From Candidatus Uhrbacteria bacterium RIFOXYC2_FULL_47_19 (GTDB taxonomy: Bacteria; Patescibacteriota; Patescibacteriia; SG8-24), in NCBI GenBank assembly GCA_001791745.1, contig MGFG01000032.1, forward strand, positions 3,775 to 67,774: a stretch of DNA of 64,000 nucleotides. Direction: 5' to 3'. Positions within the stretch are counted from its first letter, which is position 1. Each line of letters begins with the position of its first letter. The notes beneath the pieces are model-generated. The model was given only the letters and a program-made list of their open reading frames with translations, had not been told where the DNA came from and did no database searches. The position numbers and the translations under genes are program-made. Of the stretch, positions 3,118-31,484 are shown piece after piece.

Positions 3118-4068
3118 TCAGATTAATTTTGGGGGTGGATAGCCATGTAAGAAGTCGGTGCCAGACATGGCTCTACGCCCCTCAGGTTGGACTGCTATTA
3201 GTTGTACTGCCTCATCGTTCATAACGACTACAGCAGGCAGGCCATCTTTGGTCTCGATAACTGTGCCAGGGGTTTGACCATTTGCATGAATAATTTCGGC
3301 ACGAAGTAGTGCAGTACGTACTTTTTTATTATTCCTGGTTATCCAATCGAAACGAACACCAGGCCATGGACGATAGGCTCTGATCTGACGTTCGATTCTC
3401 CAGGCATTAGCCGTAGTCCAGTTTATTAATGCATCCTCTTTTCGGATCATTTTAGTAAAGGTCGCCAACTCGTGATTTTGTTCTTGAGGAAGTAAGGTTC
3501 GATCAGCTAGCATGGGTAGACTTTCAACAAGTAGTCCGGCGGCAGCTTCGGACAAACGACCAGTCAGTGATAGATAGTCGTCATCTTCTTTAATGTTTTC
3601 AATTGTAGTGGCTAAAATTGGACCATGGTCCATTTTCTCGTCCATTAGAATTAGAGTAACCCCGGTTTCGGTCTCGCCTTCGAGAATGGCAGTTTGAATA
3701 GGGGAAGCACCTCGATATTTTGGTAGCAGTGAACCATGGAGATTTATTGAACCAAGCTTCGGCATTTCGATAACCTGGCGTGGTAATATTCGTCCGTAGG
3801 CAGCTACAATAAATAGGTCAGCTTGTAATTTGTGCAGGGTTTTCAAGAAGGATGAGTCAATATTCTCTGGTTGGAGCAAGAGTAGGTTTGATTGGCGGGC
3901 GACTATGCTCACTGGCGAAGATTGGTTTTCTTGATGTCGACCCACGAGTCGGTCCGGCTGTGAGACCACTGCTATAACATCGAAGACTTCTGGGTGAGTG
4001 AGTAGTGATTGGAGTGATGGTACAGCGAAGTCTGCTGTTCCAAAGTAAACGATATGAATTGGTTCCAT
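3118..4068 (-). CDS. fmt: Methionyl-tRNA formyltransferase.
   Basis: Formyltransferase core motifs SINLHGSLLPKYRGASPIQ, and a C-terminal Fmt domain. Confidence 0.9.
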   Translation of the reverse strand: MEPIHIVYFGTADFAVPSLQSLLTHPEVFDVIAVVSQPDRLVGRHQENQSSPVSIVARQSNLLLLQPENIDSSFLKTLHKLQADLFIVAAYGRILPRQVIEMPKLGSINLHGSLLPKYRGASPIQTAILEGETETGVTLILMDEKMDHGPILATTIENIKEDDDYLSLTGRLSEAAAGLLVESLPMLADRTLLPQEQNHELATFTKMIRKEDALINWTTANAWRIERQIRAYRPWPGVRFDWITRNNKKVRTALLRAEIIHANGQTPGTVIETKDGLPAVVVMNDEAVQLIAVQPEGRRAMSGTDFLHGYPPPKLI

Positions 4069-4112: not shown

Positions 4113-4577
4113 TTAGGTCCGATTTTGTTCTTCAATGCGGTCGACGAATAATATGCCATCAAGGTGGTCCATTTCATGTTGCATGACTCGAGCAAAGAAT
4201 CCTTTGGCAGTGAAAGTTATCTTTTTGTCTTCGAGTGTCAAAGCCTCAATATCCACTTCTGTTGCTCGTCGAACTAAACCGTATTTTCCGGGAATAGATA
4301 GGCAACCTTCCTCATAGGGAGTAGTTTTTTTTGACATCTTGGTGAACTTGGGATTGATGAGGGCAATTGGTCCAGCTGAGGTTTCAGCCACAAAAACACG
4401 TTGGTTGATTCCTATTTGTGGGGCGGCCAGGCCAACTCCTTGGGCAGCGCGCATTGTTTCGATCATGTTTTCTACTAAACATCTAAAAACATCAGTCCGA
4501 ATTTCATCAAGATCGATTTCGTTGGCACGTTGGCGTAGTATTGACTCGCCGATGGTTACTATCTTTTTTATTGACAT
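4113..4577 (-). CDS. def: Peptide deformylase.
   Basis: The three PDF motifs are present: GVGLAAPQIG, EGCLSIPG and HEMDHLDG. Confidence 0.9.
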   Translation of the reverse strand: MSIKKIVTIGESILRQRANEIDLDEIRTDVFRCLVENMIETMRAAQGVGLAAPQIGINQRVFVAETSAGPIALINPKFTKMSKKTTPYEEGCLSIPGKYGLVRRATEVDIEALTLEDKKITFTAKGFFARVMQHEMDHLDGILFVDRIEEQNRT

Positions 4578-4590
4578 ACAATTTTATTGC

Positions 4591-6471
4591 TCAGCCAATC
4601 ATTTCTGGATTACGGTCCACAATATAGCTTTCTGGTAAGTTGGTGAGTGCTTGTTGGATACTTGGTGGGATGTTTATTTCGGTTTTGACTACAACCACGC
4701 TTCTCCATAGTCCATCACGAAATGGACGGCGGTGGCGTAGCGGACCAGCAACGATTCCATGTTCCGAAGCTATCGTCTTTTTAAGTGTGGTGAGTAATTC
4801 TTTTGCTTGTCGTTCAGTTTCGTTCTGATCAGGATTTCTGACAGTAATTGTTAGAAGTGTACCAAATGGAGGATAGGCTGAATTTTGTCTAGCTTCTAGT
4901 TCTGCTGTTACAAAGTCATGTTCGTTCGAGTTGAGTAATTTGATTTTGGTGCCATCTGGATCAAGTGTCTGCATTAGGAGTGATGCATTAGATGAAGCAG
5001 CAATATCTTTAAGTGTTCGAATGGTTCGCCAGGCGTCTTCCATTACACGGAAGCCAGGAAATGTTAGTAGTCCATCTAGATCAGTTACAACTACACAACC
5101 CCAGTCGCTTCGTGAAGGTAGTTCAGCTAGGTCGTGCAGCATTAAACGGGTACCGATAAGTATATCGGATTCATCGATAGTTCTGTCATGCTTCTCATTC
5201 AAGAGATCTGAATCGTAGGCAGCTACTTTATTTTTTGGGAACTCTCTTTGTAGAGCCGTTTCAAGTGACTTAGTACCCAGGCCTATGTTGTGTAAATTAA
5301 CATCGCCACATTTGGGACAGACTATCGGCAGGGTTGAGATGGTAGCGCAGCGTGGGCAGCGTAGATTACCGTTACCAACACCCAGTGCAATGTCGCACCG
5401 CTCACAACGGAACACTAATCGACAACCATTGCAGATTAAGGCTCCAGCTGTGCCGAGGCGGTTATGGTAAACTAGCACCTTTTTCCCTTGATGTAAAGAC
5501 TCGACTGCTCGATCCATAACCACCGGTGATAGTGGATGATCATAACCTTTTGGATTGCCAGTGATATTGATCAACACTGTTTTTGGATCAGAGGTTGGTG
5601 TGGCTAGTCGAGACAATTGATTTTTAGCAGCCAGAGCATACTCTTCTAGACGTGGAGCATGTGATAGATAAGCCAGACTAGCCTTAGACTCGTCTGCTCG
5701 CCAGAGTGCGATTTCTCGGGAGTCGTAACGAGGATTTTGATCATATTGACGTAGATCAGGACTATCAGACTCAAGTACTAAAAACAGACCTGGATTGCGA
5801 ACTGGAGCAAGAGCAGCTAGTCGAGTTCCGATCACAATCGCGATTGGTTCAGCTAGAAGGCGTTTCCAATTAGTACGTAGCTGTGAGTTCGTTAATTTAC
5901 CATGGATTTCCACGACAGGCGGACCATCAGGAAAGGTCAGTGCTTTGTTTAGCCTAGTGATTTCAGTGCTGTGTGGTGTAATTATAATGACACCATGACC
6001 AGAATTAATAGTACTCTTTGTTAGACGTATTGTTTCGGCAATTTTTTCATCAGAATGTCGGTATCTGATCAGCGATCGTTCGGTAGAATTAATCTTCGTC
6101 CCAACGATTTGTTCTGATAATCCTTTAGGGTCGTCGGTTAGTAATTTGGTCTTAGGTGTTCTAGGTAGGAAAGATTTTAGGGCTGTGGCTGGCGAGACCA
6201 AATAATGGTCTGACATTTTTTGCGGCAAATTAAGTAAATCTTCTCCTAGAACATGATAGTCGCCGAATCCGAGTAATTCAACGATTTGTTTATTTTTGAA
6301 CGTTGTGGTTTCGGAAAGTTCAATTACCAATCCATCGACCGGTCGTCCTCGCCAGGGGACGACAACCCATGAGCCGCGCTGCACCAAACCGCGGTACCTT
6401 TCTGGTACCGCGTAATCATACGCTCCTAAGTTTTTTGGTAGGCGGACGGCTGGGATGATTTTAGCGAACAT
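4591..6471 (-). CDS. priA: Primosomal protein N' (PriA) homolog with degenerate helicase ATPase motifs.
   Basis: An N-terminal 3'-DNA-binding-like region. A four-CxxC zinc module (CNGC...CERC...CPRC...CPKC). A C-terminal PriA domain. The Walker A position reads RYRHSDEK instead of GxTGSGKT, and the DExH position reads LVLESD. Confidence 0.75.
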   Translation of the reverse strand: MFAKIIPAVRLPKNLGAYDYAVPERYRGLVQRGSWVVVPWRGRPVDGLVIELSETTTFKNKQIVELLGFGDYHVLGEDLLNLPQKMSDHYLVSPATALKSFLPRTPKTKLLTDDPKGLSEQIVGTKINSTERSLIRYRHSDEKIAETIRLTKSTINSGHGVIIITPHSTEITRLNKALTFPDGPPVVEIHGKLTNSQLRTNWKRLLAEPIAIVIGTRLAALAPVRNPGLFLVLESDSPDLRQYDQNPRYDSREIALWRADESKASLAYLSHAPRLEEYALAAKNQLSRLATPTSDPKTVLINITGNPKGYDHPLSPVVMDRAVESLHQGKKVLVYHNRLGTAGALICNGCRLVFRCERCDIALGVGNGNLRCPRCATISTLPIVCPKCGDVNLHNIGLGTKSLETALQREFPKNKVAAYDSDLLNEKHDRTIDESDILIGTRLMLHDLAELPSRSDWGCVVVTDLDGLLTFPGFRVMEDAWRTIRTLKDIAASSNASLLMQTLDPDGTKIKLLNSNEHDFVTAELEARQNSAYPPFGTLLTITVRNPDQNETERQAKELLTTLKKTIASEHGIVAGPLRHRRPFRDGLWRSVVVVKTEINIPPSIQQALTNLPESYIVDRNPEMIG

Positions 6472-6488
6472 GGCACATATCCGATTAA

Positions 6489-7289
6489 TCAGGAGGTTTT
6501 GATACTAGCGACTAGGTAGCCGACGCCCAATGGTTTTTCGTAGGAAAAAATTTGTGGTTCGACATTCATACCATCGAGTAATCCAAAGAGCAGGGCTAAT
6601 GGTGCTGCACCACAGGCCTGGGCCTCTTTAGCCCAATCATCATCGACATCTAAGATGCCTATTGGGTTTCGCTCCTTGAGTAGTTCAACGATCTTATCGT
6701 CAAAAGCCACTCCTTTCGGGGACAAGCCACTAGGAGAATCTTCACCTACACGATGGGATAGATCTGCAGAAGCAATAACAGCTATTCTAGAAGTGGAATC
6801 CATTATTTCTGACTTAAGTGCTGTACCGATTTCAAAATGGGCCTTTAGACCTAATTCTGACGATGGACGTAGAGGTACAATGCGTACCTCCTTAAGACTT
6901 TCAGTTAGATAGTGTAGAGGTACCGAGGAACCGTAATCTAGAAAATCCTCACTCGTTAGCGTTAGTGGTAAATGTAATCGTTTAAAATCCTCGCGCAGTC
7001 TGTCTATGAGCATGGTGGCTGGTCGCCATTCGTCCTTAGTTACCAGATCACCAAACTCATCAAAGCGGCTGACATATTTGGAGTTAAAATTGATGGTAAT
7101 AGCGTCGACTAGCATCTCACCGTGGGGTGAGATTATAACAATAATATCCGGTCGGGCTGCTAAGAGCTCTTGTTCTAGTTGTTTCATTGATTGACTAGTC
7201 TTTTCTATTATTTTGAGACCCTCAACCTTGCCAATCTTTGGCATTAGAATAGGGGTATGGGCGGCAATACCGCTGAAAATTAAAGTCAT
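6489..7289 (-). CDS. Memo-like / LigB-superfamily (class III extradiol dioxygenase fold) protein.
   Basis: Segment DIIVIISPHGEM resembles the Memo/LigB metal-binding His motif. Its size of 266 aa fits the family. Confidence 0.4.
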   Translation of the reverse strand: MTLIFSGIAAHTPILMPKIGKVEGLKIIEKTSQSMKQLEQELLAARPDIIVIISPHGEMLVDAITINFNSKYVSRFDEFGDLVTKDEWRPATMLIDRLREDFKRLHLPLTLTSEDFLDYGSSVPLHYLTESLKEVRIVPLRPSSELGLKAHFEIGTALKSEIMDSTSRIAVIASADLSHRVGEDSPSGLSPKGVAFDDKIVELLKERNPIGILDVDDDWAKEAQACGAAPLALLFGLLDGMNVEPQIFSYEKPLGVGYLVASIKTS

Positions 7290-7401
7290 ATGGATAATTT
7301 ATACCATTTTAAAAGTCAAAAGACGATTCCTGTCTAGCGATATTAGACTAGATATTATTGGGTGTATGTAACCAATTCCTTGGTTGTACACAGGGGAGTC
7401 T

Positions 7402-7430
7402 TTGACGTTCGGTTTTTGTTCGGGTATGAT
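7402..7430 (+). promoter_or_regulatory. Sigma70-like promoter of lexA: -35 TTGACG (7402-7407), a 17-nt spacer, and -10 TATGAT (7425-7430). The spacer contains a direct repeat GTTCGG-N5-GTTCGG.
   Basis: Read directly from the sequence, about 20-35 nt upstream of the lexA start. Confidence 0.4.
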
Positions 7431-7449
7431 TTAGTTAGGTCTGAAGAGG

Positions 7450-8088
7450 GTGTGGATAGATTTTATGAACAGACAAGAAAAATTAACAAAAAAACAACAT
7501 CAGATTCTTGAGTATGTGACCGGATACATCCGGGGGAACGGCTACGCTCCATCCTATCGGGATATAGGTGAAGCGCTTGGCTTGTCCTCGACTGCTACGG
7601 TCCACGAGCATATCAAGAATTTGAAAGAGAAAGGGTGTTTGTCGAGCGGTAATGGTGAAGCACGAGCCTTGGAAGTAGATCCGGAGTTGTCTAGGATTGC
7701 GGTAGCTGTGACCTTACCACTCCTAGGTTTGATAACGGCTGGGGAGCCGATTGAGGCGGTAGAGGGTAAAGAGACCATGGATATTCCAGCAACACTAGTC
7801 AGAAAGCCGGATGATACTTTCGTCTTACGGGTAAGAGGGGAGTCAATGAAAGATGATGGTATTTTATCCGGCGATTTAGTGATCGTAGAGAAGAATCCTG
7901 CACCTCGTGATGGAGATACAGTAGTGGCTCTATTGGATAATGAGTATGCAACACTGAAGCGTTTCTATCGAGAGAAGGGAAGGGTGAGACTGCAGCCGGC
8001 GAATAGTTCTATGGAACCAATTTACGTAAAGGAATTGGCGGTTCAGGGTGTAGTTAGAGCGGTGATTAGAGATTTTCGGTCGGGTTAA
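7450..8088 (+). CDS. lexA: LexA repressor (S24 peptidase). The ORF-track start at 7450 is GTG, and the ATG at 7465 is the likelier start.
   Basis: An N-terminal winged HTH (YAPSYRDIGEALGLSSTATVHEHIKNL), the cleavage region, and the S24 catalytic motifs VRGESM...LKRF. Confidence 0.85.
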   Translation: MWIDFMNRQEKLTKKQHQILEYVTGYIRGNGYAPSYRDIGEALGLSSTATVHEHIKNLKEKGCLSSGNGEARALEVDPELSRIAVAVTLPLLGLITAGEPIEAVEGKETMDIPATLVRKPDDTFVLRVRGESMKDDGILSGDLVIVEKNPAPRDGDTVVALLDNEYATLKRFYREKGRVRLQPANSSMEPIYVKELAVQGVVRAVIRDFRSG

Positions 8089-17607: not shown

Positions 17608-17886
17608 TCAATTAAGTTCTCTCTTAAGGTTGGATGTAGTATAAGAACGTTCTTCCGCTGTCCTGATTAGTCGATCAAGTAAGGTCTGATAATGAATACC
17701 ACTAGCTGCTAATAGTTTTGGAAACATGCTGAATTGAGTAAATCCAGGCATTGTATTGATTTCATTGAGGTAAAGTTCATCAGACTTTGGATTGAGTGTC
17801 TTGGCAATTGAAATAGCAGAACGTACAGATACTTCATGTTCACTGGATTTTCCTCCGTACAGCAGTAGCAGTGATTTCTTCGGCAT
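17608..17886 (-). pseudogene. ddl: D-alanine--D-alanine ligase remnant. An in-frame internal deletion has left 92 aa.
   Basis: Residues 5-27 ([26 protein letters not shown]) match the Ddl N-terminus. Residues 39-75 ([39 protein letters not shown]) match the extreme Ddl C-terminus. The central ATP-grasp region, about 220 aa, is absent. Confidence 0.7.
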
Positions 17887-28195: not shown

Positions 28196-28489
28196 TCAAG
28201 TCACGGCCACTAGTTGCTTAACAACATCAGATTCTAGGTGGTGATTAATCTCCTCAATTAGTTCATTGGCGACTAGACGGATATCTTCGGCTAGTACTGA
28301 TGTGCCACAGACTAGCGTCACCTTTCCATCTTTAAAACGGCGAACAATCAACTGATCAGTTTTTGAACCAAACCTTTCTTTTATTACCAATAAGGTGGTA
28401 TTAGCCACGATGGCCGCTCGGACTTTACCAGCAGCACCAGCCCGTTGGAGTGAACCGCTCATCAAGTTATCCAGTTTTTCGAAAGGCAT
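28196..28489 (-). CDS. DciA (DUF721)-like protein. Shortened from the ORF-track call. The start MPFEKL lies 4 nt after the upstream stop.
   Basis: The C-terminal segment RRFKDGKVTLVCGTSVLAEDIRLVANELIEEIN matches the DUF721 pattern (G-T-L-x-V...S-x-W/L-A-x-E-L...N). Confidence 0.45.
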   Translation of the reverse strand: MPFEKLDNLMSGSLQRAGAAGKVRAAIVANTTLLVIKERFGSKTDQLIVRRFKDGKVTLVCGTSVLAEDIRLVANELIEEINHHLESDVVKQLVAVT

Positions 28490-28493
28490 GGAC

Positions 28494-31484
28494 TTAAGAT
28501 TTGAGGTTGAATTCACAAATACCAGCAAAATCGCAATTTTGGCAGTTGATTGAACTAGGGTTGGGGGTGAAGTCTCCAGAGTTGATTTTTTCGATAGTGG
28601 TCTCAATTTCTTCTTCTAGCTTTCCTAAATCATCATCATTACCAATAAAGCTCTGTCGAGAGCCGTCTTTGAGATAATGAAAAGTTAGTCTAGTTGGTTG
28701 AAGCTCAAGAACACGGGCAGTAGCGAGCTGGTACAGAAGTAATTGACGCTTGTCATCTTTTGATAACTTTTCTTTAGGCGATCCGGTCTTATAATCAATA
28801 ATTTCGTGCGTACCATCGCAGAGTAAATCTATTCGATCGATTTTGCCGCGAAAAACACAGCCACCGAGTTTTAGTCGAAAATCCTGCTCGAGTAGAAATG
28901 GGTTTGGATGCTCGATGGTTAGTTGTTCGTAAAAACGTTCCAACATCTGACGGCCTTTTACACGAAAATTTTCTCTTTCTGTGTCGTCTTTATACCAATC
29001 ATTAATCCAACAGTCGTCGTATGTCTGAAGTAGCTCTTTTAAGGTTAGTGGTAGGCTAGAAAGGTTAGAAGAATCTTTTGAATCGCTGTTAAATAGATTG
29101 GTCTGCTTAGTAGAGGTTCGGACCACTAGTTCATCCATAAATTTCTCTAGAGTTGCATGCATGGTCTTACCGAAACTCATTGATGCTTTACCAAAGACCG
29201 GTAAACGTAAGACGTGTGCAAATTTGTATTGAAGAGGACACCGGTCATAGGCCTCGAGTTGAGAGAAACTAAACGAGTTAGGTGGTTGGTAGTCAGGGGG
29301 TGCAGAATTAATTTGAGGTGTTGGTTTTATCTCTTCGAGGAGTTCCATAGAGGGAGCGATCGGTGTTCGGTCGAAGCCTAATTCGGACAGGAAACGCGAT
29401 GGTTTCTTTTTTCGTCGACCGCCGTAATCCTCAGCTGAGGTTAGGAACAAACCATCTTTGGCACGGGTCATGGCCACGTAAAATAACCGACGTTCTTCTT
29501 CTAAGTGCATGTCGCCCTCTGGAATGATCTCCTTGGTAAGCGCGTCCGGTAGCTCAATCTCTCCTCCTCGTCGGTTGGTTGGGAAGCGTTGATCCACCAG
29601 ATTAACCACGAAGACATAAGGGAATTCTAGTCCTTTAGAAGAATGTACAGTCATGATTCGAACCATGTCTGGACCTGTGTTGATATCGAAAGCCAGTGTA
29701 CCAGCATTACCTCCTTCGCGTTCTAGCTCTAATTCTTGCATGAAGTGGCGTAAATTGGGGTCATCATGTCCATCCTCATAGCGTTTAATTCGGTCTAGGA
29801 ATTGTTTTAAAAGAGCCAAACTTTCGTGTTTCTCGGCTGTATCTGCAGCCTTGAGATGGTTGACATAGCCAGAGTCGTACAACCAGCGTACGGCTGCTTC
29901 TCTGACTCCTTGTCGTCGAACGACGTCGGTGTGTCCTGCCAAGTGCCCCATGAGTCGGTCAAGCAGTGCTTGACCCTCTGGTGTAATAGTCGTTAACTCA
30001 TGACGTCGTTTAATCACTTCGTAGAGTGATTCCCCTTTCAATCGGTCAGCGGTATGGGTTAACTCGATTAAGTCTGGTCCAGGTAGTGAGTATGGCGGGC
30101 AGACCAGAATGCGATACAGGGCCGCACTTTCATGATAGTTATCGAGCAGTTTTAGATAAGCAATGCAGTCGAGTACTACCGGTTTAGTGTAAAGACCTTT
30201 GAGAGCTAAGTATTGGAATGGAATACTACGACGTTGGAGTTCAGCAGCAAAAGGATCAGCTTGGCTATGTGAACGGACTAAAATAGCAAAATCGCTCCAA
30301 GAGTGTTCATCTGAGCTGCCCTTGATTTCGGAGATAACTTGTATGGTCTCTCGGACCTCATCTTGGAGTGTGGCGTAGTGTAAGTGAGCCACACGAGCTT
30401 GACCTGGCCGGTGTGCAGTAAGTCGTTTGGAAAGTCCTTGACCATCAGGTCCAGCTAGTCTGATTTCTAGACGATTAGGGTTGTTGCCTTGGATAAAGCG
30501 ATAAGAGATATCTAAAATTTCTTGCAACGAACGATAATTGATGTTCAAAATTACCTCTCGTGAATTTGGAAAATCATCCTTGAACTGAAGAATGTTAGAG
30601 ATGGATGCTCCACGGAATTTATAGATTGATTGATCATCATCACCTACAACCGTGACATTTTTAGTATCTCCTGCCAAAGCTTTTACTAGTTCGTATTGCG
30701 CCCAATTAGTGTCTTGAAATTCATCAATAATTATGTAGCGGAAACGTTCCTGTAATTCTTTAAGTACGGTTGGTCGTCTCCTCAATAATTCGAGGACGTA
30801 CATGTTGAGATCACCAAAGTCCAGATCTCCATGTTCTAACAGTAATCGTTGATAGGTGTGATAGGCATCGGCTTGTTCTTGTAGTCGTGAAGCTTCATCA
30901 GCGTCTGCACTGCCGGAACGGTCCTGATCCAGAGCCACGCCTTTCGCATATTCTAGATATTCATCTGGCGTCACTGCTTCATCTTTGGCACGGGAAAAGT
31001 GTTTTAGTAAAGCTTGGACAAATTTAGTCGGATTGCCAGCCGGTCGATAATAGTCCAAATCAAACTGACTAAAATTGCTTCTAACTAACAAGTATTGGTC
31101 AATTTCATTTAGCAGATGAAAATCATTCGGTAGGCCAATTTGTAAGCCGTATTCTTGAAGGATACGTTGGCAGAATGAATGGAAGGTCGAGATCCAGAGG
31201 TCTACATAACCCATCGGCATCAATCGATCTACTCGTTCCTCCATTTCTTCGGCCGATTTGTCAGTAAAAGTTAGGGCTAAAATTTGATCCGGCTTAGCTC
31301 GTCCAGTAGCTACCAACCAGGCGATCCGCTTGGTTACTACCATTGTTTTTCCAGTACCGGCCCCAGCCACAATAATTTGTGGTCCATCACCATGAGTTAC
31401 AGCTGACAACTGACGATCATTAAGGCTATCGAGTAGCCCATCGACATTAATGTCTTTCTCATTTTTGGCGTTAAGTATAGACAT
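28494..31484 (-). CDS. UvrD/PcrA-like SF1 helicase fused to a C-terminal RecB-family PD-(D/E)XK nuclease with a Cas4/AddB-type Fe-S cysteine cluster.
   Basis: The N-terminus carries Walker A (AGAGTGKT) and helicase motifs. The last roughly 250 aa carry CPLQYKF...DRIDL...IIDYKTG...CQNCDFAGIC. Confidence 0.8.
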   Translation of the reverse strand: MSILNAKNEKDINVDGLLDSLNDRQLSAVTHGDGPQIIVAGAGTGKTMVVTKRIAWLVATGRAKPDQILALTFTDKSAEEMEERVDRLMPMGYVDLWISTFHSFCQRILQEYGLQIGLPNDFHLLNEIDQYLLVRSNFSQFDLDYYRPAGNPTKFVQALLKHFSRAKDEAVTPDEYLEYAKGVALDQDRSGSADADEASRLQEQADAYHTYQRLLLEHGDLDFGDLNMYVLELLRRRPTVLKELQERFRYIIIDEFQDTNWAQYELVKALAGDTKNVTVVGDDDQSIYKFRGASISNILQFKDDFPNSREVILNINYRSLQEILDISYRFIQGNNPNRLEIRLAGPDGQGLSKRLTAHRPGQARVAHLHYATLQDEVRETIQVISEIKGSSDEHSWSDFAILVRSHSQADPFAAELQRRSIPFQYLALKGLYTKPVVLDCIAYLKLLDNYHESAALYRILVCPPYSLPGPDLIELTHTADRLKGESLYEVIKRRHELTTITPEGQALLDRLMGHLAGHTDVVRRQGVREAAVRWLYDSGYVNHLKAADTAEKHESLALLKQFLDRIKRYEDGHDDPNLRHFMQELELEREGGNAGTLAFDINTGPDMVRIMTVHSSKGLEFPYVFVVNLVDQRFPTNRRGGEIELPDALTKEIIPEGDMHLEEERRLFYVAMTRAKDGLFLTSAEDYGGRRKKKPSRFLSELGFDRTPIAPSMELLEEIKPTPQINSAPPDYQPPNSFSFSQLEAYDRCPLQYKFAHVLRLPVFGKASMSFGKTMHATLEKFMDELVVRTSTKQTNLFNSDSKDSSNLSSLPLTLKELLQTYDDCWINDWYKDDTERENFRVKGRQMLERFYEQLTIEHPNPFLLEQDFRLKLGGCVFRGKIDRIDLLCDGTHEIIDYKTGSPKEKLSKDDKRQLLLYQLATARVLELQPTRLTFHYLKDGSRQSFIGNDDDLGKLEEEIETTIEKINSGDFTPNPSSINCQNCDFAGICEFNLKS

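Follow-up and report, generated by a model that had tools for sequence, protein, structure and literature searches.

The priA locus and its gene neighbourhood

The window, that is, the whole 64-kb stretch of DNA analysed, carries an uninterrupted open reading frame (ORF) on the minus strand at 4591..6471, which starts with ATG and encodes 626 aminoacids plus a stop. We confirmed this ORF as an intact PriA homolog. An earlier note on this DNA had claimed a PriA architecture for the product, and the Pfam match of its 3'-end-binding domain (3'BD), its relatives in the PDB, its four CxxC pairs and its fold all bear this out.

Upstream, after a gap of 17 nt, lies a LigB/Memo-like gene (6489..7289, minus strand; PF02900 at 1e-26), which is probably the first gene of an operon with priA. 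On the other side, 13 nt downstream of priA, is an ORF at 4113..4577 (minus strand) that we take to be def (peptide deformylase), from its translation and the well-known priA-def-fmt order. The next ORF is fmt (methionyl-tRNA formyltransferase; 3118..4068, minus strand), and for both genes tblastn synteny agrees. Memo/LigB-like gene, priA, def and fmt follow one another in loci of the tiny-celled Patescibacteria (candidate phyla radiation, CPR), whether these encode the degenerate PriA or a canonical one. In terms of tblastn, def is syntenic in nearly all related loci, and priA-def-fmt is found in most of the 51, canonical-PriA loci included. By position, the gene is thus the orthologous priA. 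Co-regulation of the operon by the SOS response, through a divergent lexA, was considered and set aside; several relatives have another gene between lexA and the operon. A conserved 19-mer adjoins the divergent lexA. An Rfam scan of the whole window gave no match, and no rRNA or tRNA.

The 3'BD covers aa 1-103 (6163..6471, minus strand). PF17764 (PriA_3primeBD) matches aa 15-103 with 49.7 bits, against a cut-off of 22.7 in the Pfam scan. Two residues of its pocket, D19 and Y20, are invariant in a 22-sequence clade alignment. Aligning the clade profile with PDB sequences places them opposite D17 and Y18, the 3'-end pocket residues of E. coli PriA (PMC5778457). As for the helicase core, neither DEAD nor Helicase_C has a match above its own Pfam cut-off anywhere in the 626 aa. 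The closest solved structures are the PriAs of K. pneumoniae and E. coli, with E 4e-37 for the single sequence and 1e-97 for the clade profile. The AlphaFold (AF2) model has a pLDDT of 87.7 and reaches TM 0.73 against PriA structures. In Foldseek, the top nine matches are all PriA (E 3e-40 to 6e-30, TM 0.63-0.73), and the next family, Mfd, follows at 1e-8.

The AF2 secondary structure and Foldseek matches to PriA delimit RecA-like lobe 1 at aa 132-300 (5572..6078, minus strand) and RecA-like lobe 2 at aa 301-530 (4882..5571, minus strand). Inserted in lobe 2 is the cysteine-rich zinc region, aa 344-396 (5284..5442, minus strand), with its CxxC pairs at C347/350, C356/359, C372/375 and C385/388. 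The eight cysteines are invariant in the 22-sequence alignment. Finally, the probable PriA C-terminal domain spans aa 531-626 (4594..4881, minus strand) and contains a YPP motif that is also conserved in the clade alignment. PriA_C (PF18074) scores 22.6 bits here, under the Pfam cut-off of 26.9. The alignment of the clade profile covers this domain of 4nl4 as far as residue 744, and in the AF2 model the topology is beta-alpha-beta, as expected. An aromatic-rich loop, RQYDQNPRYDSR, is found at aa 241-252 (5716..5751, minus strand) and is kept across the clade, with Q242, D244, Q245, P247, R248, Y249, D250 and R252 invariant in the 22 sequences.

The winged-helix (WH) domain is absent. In its place, between the 3'BD and lobe 1, stands a short linker of 28 aa (aa 104-131; 6079..6162, minus strand). 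Part of it is disordered, with aa 116-126 having a pLDDT <50 and no predicted secondary structure in the AF2 model. The spacer from the 3'BD to motif I is 37 aa, compared with about 99 aa in PriAs of at least 700 aa. The only structure to which the clade profile aligns at full length in a single alignment is 6dcr, an E. coli WH-deletion construct that is also among the top Foldseek matches of the model. A link between the loss of this domain and the loss of ATPase motifs described below was rejected, because canonical CPR PriAs likewise lack the WH spacer (median 50 aa).

Helicase motifs and their fate in the clade

Motif I was placed by a MAFFT alignment with 101 homologs and by a profile-versus-PDB alignment, and both agree. 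The earlier note had read RYRHSDEK at this site and LVLESD at motif II, and both placements hold in the HMM, the multiple alignment and the structure. The degenerate Walker A is YRHSDEKI (aa 137-144; 6040..6063, minus strand), at the site of GxxGxGKT and opposite GVTGSGKT, with the three glycines and the Thr gone. Motif II is LESD (aa 233-236; 5764..5775, minus strand), at the site of DExH and opposite DEEH of K. pneumoniae PriA. The earlier note had also expected these motifs to lack the Lys and Asp/Glu residues. This is only half the case, because K143, opposite E. coli K230, keeps the lysine position of Walker A and E234 keeps the first Glu of motif II, while the Walker B Asp is gone.

The degeneration extends beyond the two motifs first noticed. 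Motif III reads SHA instead of SAT, and motif V reads GTRLMLHD instead of GTQMxxKG. Motif VI is TLKDIAAS (aa 486-493; 4993..5016, minus strand), which stands opposite QVAGRAGR, lacks the QxxGRxGR consensus and has lost both arginines. The degenerate motifs V and VI both fall in lobe 2. We looked for an intact GKT/DExH that a mis-alignment could have hidden, both in the protein and in the other frames, and found none. The 626-aa protein has no GK[ST], no GRxxR and no DExH in a Walker-B context, and the other two frames, with 40 and 52 stops, contain no GK[ST], GRxxR or DExH motif. A frameshift artefact is therefore excluded.

Among the 150 best cluster representatives, about 135 have no ATPase motifs. 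Conservation was calculated on 135 representatives of clusters at 50% identity, taken from the profile search. Among them, the Walker A glycines are kept in 1-3% and the Thr in 9%, the motif VI arginines in 1% and 6%, and the A and T of motif III in 7% and 15%. Positions that contact DNA or belong to the structural framework present a different picture. The Pro of motif Ia is kept in 96%, GTR of motif Ib in 96/96/84%, N/R/G of motif IV in 90/78/99%, P/R/Y of the aromatic-rich loop in 99/92/78%, the YPP motif in 89-99% and the eight cysteines in 99-100%. The 51 loci L001-L051 were found by the pattern Q[YS]DQNPRY, so the conservation of the loop in them follows from the pattern, and we draw nothing from it. 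For the loop, the percentages and invariant residues given here are taken from the profile search and the clade alignment.

In terms of species-level genomes, the ATPase motifs are absent at 41 of the 51 loci, from Uhrbacteria, Falkowbacteria, Kerfeldbacteria and Veblenbacteria. Saccharibacteria, Doudnabacteria, Moranbacteria and other Parcubacteria keep the canonical motifs. The earlier note had asked whether the CPR/Patescibacteria clade shares the loss; it is the mark of one large sub-clade rather than a CPR-wide trait. In a literature search that was not exhaustive, no publication turned up that connects the loss of PriA motifs to the CPR.

In a neighbour-joining (NJ) tree, 151 of 152 degenerate sequences form one clade free of canonical PriAs, and 81 of 100 bootstraps keep at least 95% of them in one group. 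The sister group consists of canonical short CPR PriAs. The tree supports a single origin of the motor loss, nested among canonical Patescibacteria PriAs. A few degenerate PriAs from outside the CPR also fall inside this clade, which means that long-branch attraction is possible.

The gene is under strong purifying selection. Compared with the 78%-identical ortholog in L001, priA has pN 0.119 and pS 0.744, where pN/pS is used in place of dN/dS because synonymous sites are saturated (pS 0.74-0.82). Its pN is similar to the 0.098 of def and the 0.145 of fmt, and the constraint is equal on the two helicase lobes.

Alternative readings of the degenerate motor

That the gene could be a decaying relic or pseudogene, or that an assembly or frameshift artefact conceals intact motifs, is already refuted, and we give it almost no credence. 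Nothing speaks for it except the missing motifs themselves. The ORF is full-length, at least 135 clusters at 50% identity show the same length and architecture, pN is far under pS, AF2 predicts the fold with confidence, and the other frames are rich in stops and contain no motifs. It is also very unlikely, although less so, that we are dealing with a diverged paralog with no part in replication restart, with the canonical PriA encoded elsewhere in the genome. The 64 kb open to inspection leave room for a second, canonical PriA or for a compensating helicase, and the NCBIfam equivalog TIGR00595 scores 197.5 bits on the query, under its cut-off of 230.35. Against this, the gene holds the ancestral priA-def-fmt position that canonical CPR PriAs share, and CPR genomes are small, with few paralogs. 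Furthermore, a scan with the single aromatic-rich-loop pattern found one matching locus per genome in 51 of 51 genomes, including a complete 886-kb chromosome (OZ246416.1) and an 881-kb contig (JAKAGM010000001.1).

Another alternative, which we also regard as unlikely, is that the ATP site has been repurposed, either to bind a nucleotide or other ligand without canonical hydrolysis or to act as a conformational latch or partner-binding site. In the near, Uhrbacteria-like clade the substitute motifs are well conserved (YxSPxEK, LE[SA]DS, SHAPR, GTRLLLHD) and the K143 position is K or R throughout. Together with the retention of K143 and E234, this makes a residual or altered ligand role of the old pocket possible, and E. 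coli PriA has been discussed as having a second nucleotide site, a weaker one (PMC5778457). However, every glycine of the P-loop and both motif VI arginines are lost. Across the 135 representatives of the wider clade the former ATP-site positions show no consensus at all, which indicates relaxed rather than redirected constraint.

A proposed reading: a motorless PriA as a fork-recognition scaffold

The reading that we consider quite likely is that of an orthologous priA whose SF2 motor is permanently off, the product acting as an ATP-independent scaffold for fork recognition and helicase reloading. The earlier note had already predicted an ATPase-dead PriA. The loss of motifs III, V and VI, the conservation across the clade and the purifying selection strengthen that prediction, which is made from sequence. 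Because the P-loop, the Walker B Asp, motif III, the C-terminal half of motif V and the motif VI arginines are missing, we infer that the protein would neither hydrolyse ATP nor translocate or unwind DNA. Binding to ssDNA and forks, and the interaction with DnaB, are predicted to be retained, judging from how well the pocket of the 3'BD, the aromatic-rich loop and motifs Ia, Ib and IV are conserved.

In the proposed mechanism, the 3'BD pocket would take the nascent leading-strand 3' end and the aromatic-rich loop would wedge into the junction, as it does into the fork junction in E. coli PriA (PMC10175261). Motifs Ia, Ib and IV would provide backbone contacts, and the two-zinc cysteine-rich region and the C-terminal domain would have been kept for fork recognition. 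The substrate would be forks and D-loops in which the lagging-strand template is already single-stranded, and this strand may be enclosed by the cysteine-rich region, lobe 2 and the C-terminal domain, like in E. coli PriA. In E. coli, the loop and the pore of the cysteine-rich region explain the capture of forks and ssDNA, and no unwinding is needed when the lagging strand is single-stranded (PMC10175261, PMC13594977). The protein would be a static landing pad, from which DnaB could return to the DNA, with no intermediary as in D. radiodurans or with the help of a DciA-type loader. The naming of DnaB and DciA as partners is an extrapolation.

The precedent that the earlier note mentioned for divergent ATPase-dead PriAs is real. 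In biochemical work, the PriA of D. radiodurans showed neither ATPase nor helicase activity but did bind ssDNA, forked DNA and DnaB (Lopper et al. 2015, PMC4504706). Like the query, the Deinococcus-Thermus protein is a PriA ortholog in which Walker A and Walker B depart from the consensus and the DNA-binding domains are kept, and both are expected to be ATP-independent restart scaffolds, which for the query is predicted from its sequence. By its description, however, the Deinococcus-Thermus PriA still has a recognisable P-loop, with K changed to R. In the query the erasure is far more radical: the P-loop glycines, motifs III and V and the motif VI arginines are gone, whereas the lysine position is kept. 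The query also has no WH domain and is much shorter (626 aa). The two losses appear independent, because the NJ sister group of the query clade is canonical CPR PriAs, in a tree without a Deinococcus sequence. The best explanation is that this clade is a new, apparently independent member of the D. radiodurans-type PriA pseudohelicases.

When compared to the E. coli and K. pneumoniae PriAs (4nl4, 6dgd, 8fak), the query has the same order of domains: 3'BD, lobe 1, lobe 2 with the cysteine-rich insert, and a probable C-terminal domain. All share the aromatic-rich loop, the D/Y pocket for the 3' end, motifs Ia, Ib and IV and the eight cysteines, and what the query lacks is the ATPase motifs and the WH domain. 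The residues on which PriB docks in E. coli, D438, S481, T482 and H483, are G, D, V and N in the query by the clade profile alignment. This points to different partners, and PriB and DnaT are not expected. Closer to home, the canonical short PriAs of Moranbacteria, Saccharibacteria, Doudnabacteria and other Parcubacteria are, like the query, WH-less and compact, with the loop motif QYDQNPRY and the same gene neighbourhood. Unlike the query, they keep GSGKT, DEEH/Q, SAT, GTQMxxKG and QxxGRxxR.

In E. coli, the priA300 mutant (K230R) is ATPase-dead and still supports PriA-PriB restart (PMC5778457), showing that primosome assembly is possible there in a protein that, in this respect, the query is predicted to resemble. 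Both priA300 and the WH-deletion PriA (6dcr) are engineered single changes in a canonical protein that works with PriB, DnaT and DnaC. In the query the two features occur naturally and together, and they have become fixed in a lineage. The clade is a natural counterpart of these variants. Here the PriA motor would have been lost a second time, apparently independently and far more completely, and the loss is fixed in a radiation of Patescibacteria that is both large and diverse, with at least 135 protein clusters (50% identity) and 41 genomes at species level. This would support the idea that what is essential and conserved in PriA is to recognise forks and recruit the helicase, not to unwind, and that small-genome bacteria with DciA and without PriB, PriC and DnaT can dispense with the motor. 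For structural studies of how PriA couples to DnaB and DciA, the clade provides a natural and compact scaffold of 626 aa.

A bolder proposal, which we hold to be rather doubtful, is that a class-level branch of Patescibacteria has long relied for restart on a motorless, WH-less PriA whose old pocket is re-used as a regulatory or partner site. If true, PriA would be a purely structural fork sensor there, and DnaB would be handed directly to a DciA-type loader through an interface unlike those of the studied systems.

Lastly, a candidate for such a helicase-loading partner is encoded at 28196..28489 (minus strand), a gene of about 97 aa with its start inferred at M40 of the ORF. The presence of a DciA-like gene in the window had been noted before. 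The gene is there, but its match to PF05258 (DciA/DUF721) is sub-threshold, at 22.5 bits against a cut-off of 24 (E 1.4e-4), so that the DciA-like assignment is tentative. One of three database homologs carries the DciA (PF05258) annotation, and a hypothetical protein from Candidatus Uhrbacteria RIFOXYC2_FULL_47_19 matches the product at 100% identity.

The PriA homolog and its helicase motifs

The priA gene at 4591..6471 (-) starts with ATG and encodes 626 aa without interruption. In terms of Pfam domains, the 3'-end-binding domain (3'BD) of PriA is matched at 49.7 bits (cut-off 22.7) and the PriA C-terminal domain below threshold, with no DEAD or Helicase_C domain above cut-off. The NCBIfam matches are PriA models only, all under their equivalog cut-offs (TIGR00595, 197.5 vs 230.35). 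Among solved structures, relatives are limited to K. pneumoniae and E. coli PriA, found at E 4e-37 by sequence and at E 1e-97 with a profile of 22 clade sequences.

The AlphaFold2 model, with the clade alignment as input (pLDDT 87.7, pTM 0.89), starts with the 3'BD (aa 1-103), which a short linker, disordered in part (aa 104-131), joins to lobe 1 (aa 132 to about 300). Lobe 2, which runs to about aa 530, carries the zinc module as an insert (aa 344-396) and is followed by the C-terminal domain (aa 531-626). All four CxxC pairs are present (C347/350, C356/359, C372/375, C385/388). The nine best Foldseek matches in the PDB are all PriA: 8fak_H (E 3e-40, TM 0.73) is followed by 6dcr, 6dgd, 4nl4 and 4nl8. 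The nearest non-PriA family is Mfd, at 1e-8.

The winged-helix (WH) domain is absent: 37 aa separate 3'BD from motif I, where PriAs of at least 700 aa have about 99 aa. Canonical short PriAs of the candidate phyla radiation (CPR, or Patescibacteria; e.g. database matches P0028 and P0029 and scanned loci L028-L044) are also short-spaced, with a median of 50 aa, so the WH domain was lost before the ATPase, and not only in the proteins that lack the latter. Judging by these spacers, PriAs of the CPR seem to lack the WH domain in general.

Three independent alignments (phmmer against 4nl4, MAFFT L-INS-i with 101 homologs, and the clade profile against E. coli and K. pneumoniae PriA) concur on the placement of the motifs and confirm a PriA homolog with degenerate motifs I and II, as the earlier note had read it. 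Motif I (Walker A, aa 137-144) is YRHSDEKI instead of GVTGSGKT, with three glycines and the threonine lost and K143 exactly at K230. Motif II (DExH, aa 233-236) is LESD instead of DEEH. The note had expected Lys and Asp/Glu to be missing from these motifs; the Asp is gone, but the Lys position (K143) and the first Glu (E234) are kept. The losses also go beyond these two motifs: motif III (around aa 270-272) reads SHA for SAT, motif V (around aa 440-447) GTRLMLHD for GTQMxxKG, and motif VI (aa 486-493) TLKDIAAS for QxxGRxGR, where both arginines are gone. As for the two errors that the note allowed for, no GK[ST], GRxxR or Walker-B-type DExH occurs at other positions of the protein, and a frameshift hiding the motifs is ruled out, since the other two frames hold 40 and 52 stops.

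Spread and origin of the motif loss

Residue retention was measured in 135 representatives of degenerate PriA clusters at 50% identity. In this clade the ATP-handling residues are erased, and constraint lies on DNA-contact elements, the zinc module and the 3'-end pocket. Kept at low frequency are the Walker A glycines (1-3%) and Thr (9%), motif III A and T (7% and 15%), motif V K and G (26% and 1%) and the motif VI arginines (1% and 6%); the Walker A Lys is kept in 56%. High retention is seen for motif Ia Pro (96%), motif Ib G-T-R (96, 96 and 84%), P, R and Y of the aromatic-rich loop (99, 92 and 78%), motif IV N, R and G (90, 78 and 99%), the eight cysteines (99-100%), YPP (89-99%) and the 3'BD Tyr (96%).

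In database matches P0001-P0022 (29-100% identity) the 3'BD is the sole Pfam domain; DEAD and Helicase_C are present from about 25% identity downward. Of the 51 loci from the genome scan, almost all carry a Patescibacteria/CPR label or are unclassified. The motifs are degenerate in 41 of them and canonical in nine, including Saccharibacteria and Doudnabacteria; one is a fragment. The loss, which the note had proposed to check across the CPR, is thus not CPR-wide but marks one large sub-clade. Degenerate loci bear names such as Uhrbacteria, Parcubacteria SG8_24, Falkowbacteria, Veblenbacteria and Kerfeldbacteria, groups that probably all belong to GTDB class ABY1. Many loci with Patescibacteria-type PriA and synteny (L012, L005, L015, L019 and others) are titled "uncultured Gammaproteobacteria bacterium", and single ones Pirellulales and Chlorobiaceae; the probable cause is default labels set at submission or faulty binning.

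When 1.84 billion cluster representatives were searched with the profile, 11,074 PriA-like proteins were recovered at E < 1e-30; among the best 150 (all >400 bits), both Walker A and motif VI are missing in about 135. In a neighbour-joining tree of 243 sequences, a single clade without canonical members holds 151 of the 152 degenerate sequences, and 81 of 100 bootstraps keep at least 95% of them together. Its sister group consists of canonical short PriAs from Moranbacteria and other Parcubacteria. This topology, from a tree without Deinococcus sequences, argues for one ancient loss within CPR, apparently independent of Deinococcus-Thermus. Long-branch attraction is possible, because a few non-CPR degenerate PriAs fell inside the clade.

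Outside the main clade, P0037, P0038, P0032, P0094, P0098 and P0100-P0102 are further PriA homologs in which Walker A, DExH and motif VI are missing; one of these is labelled Microthrixaceae (actinobacterial). Such cases suggest that bacteria have lost the PriA motor more than twice.

A possible role at the fork

The order of a LigB/Memo-like gene (6489..7289, (-)), priA after a 17-nt gap, def (4113..4577) after 13 nt, and fmt (3118..4068), which probably form one operon here, is seen again in most of the 51 loci, also where PriA is fully canonical (L028, L032, L037). Because of this common order, the gene is the positional ortholog of priA and not a stray paralog. A canonical PriA encoded elsewhere, beyond the 64 kb of genome in view, is unlikely: the synteny speaks against it, as does the single match per genome in the scan, which included one complete 886-kb chromosome. 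A pseudogene or sequencing artefact was refuted. Against the 78%-identical ortholog of locus L001, priA has pN 0.119 and a saturated pS of 0.744; its pN is similar to that of def (0.098) and fmt (0.145), and constraint on the two helicase lobes is as strong as on the 3'BD.

A repurposed ATP pocket would agree with the retained K143 and E234 and with substitute motifs conserved within the near clade. We consider it improbable, as the pocket positions have no consensus across the wider clade.

Most likely, by analogy with E. coli PriA, its priA300 allele and D. radiodurans PriA, the protein acts as an ATP-independent fork sensor. The E. coli 3'BD captures the leading-strand 3' end via Asp17, Tyr18, Gly37 and Lys61, and ATPase-dead priA300 still supports PriA-PriB restart (PMC5778457). 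A lobe 1 loop of the E. coli protein acts as a wedge in the fork junction; fork binding then rotates the cysteine-rich region, so that it makes a pore enclosing the single-stranded lagging-strand DNA, and uncovers a partner-docking surface (PMC10175261). Unwinding is required only for a duplex lagging arm (PMC13594977). D. radiodurans PriA binds ssDNA, forks and DnaB without ATPase or helicase activity (PMC4504706). Substrates of the fork sensor would be forks and D-loops that already have a single-stranded lagging template, and it would recruit DnaB directly or with a DciA-type loader. In the clade-profile alignment, the E. coli PriB-docking residues D438, S481, T482 and H483 are G, D, V and N, which fits a different partner.

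This kind of PriA pseudohelicase is already known in Deinococcus-Thermus, but the Patescibacteria case is more radical, lineage-wide, apparently independent and combined with a minimal WH-less architecture. As such a second case it appears to be new; full-text literature searches found no paper linking PriA motif loss and CPR bacteria. It is useful for understanding the core function of PriA.

Other genes in the window

The DciA-like gene named in the earlier note was located at 28196..28489 (-), with a Pfam match that is sub-threshold. Its 97-aa product matches hypothetical protein A2480_03950 of Candidatus Uhrbacteria bacterium RIFOXYC2_FULL_47_19 at 100% identity, so the window derives from this MAG or one almost the same. 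It lies just downstream of a 996-aa fusion of a UvrD/PcrA-type helicase and a C-terminal PD-(D/E)XK nuclease (AddA-like; 28494..31484, (-)), and the mechanical ORFs overlap. A repair helicase-nuclease is thereby paired with a putative DnaB loader.

Across the intergenic region 7290..7449 from the LigB-like/priA/def/fmt operon lies lexA (7450..8088, (+)). About 25 nt upstream of it, the 19-nt element GTTCGGTTTTTGTTCGGGT (7407..7425) is identical in all eight lexA-bearing related loci examined (L001-L003, L005-L008, L035), where the remaining spacer is divergent. It is a candidate LexA operator, a direct repeat CGAAC-N6-CGAAC unlike the palindromic Cheo box. The same spacer holds an imperfect palindrome, TGTATGTAACCAA/TTGGTTGTACACA, at 7363..7392. 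Lastly, a 92-aa ORF at 17608..17886 (-) is matched by the two Pfam models of D-Ala-D-Ala ligase, N-terminal and C-terminal, and resembles a ddl remnant with an internal deletion or truncation.
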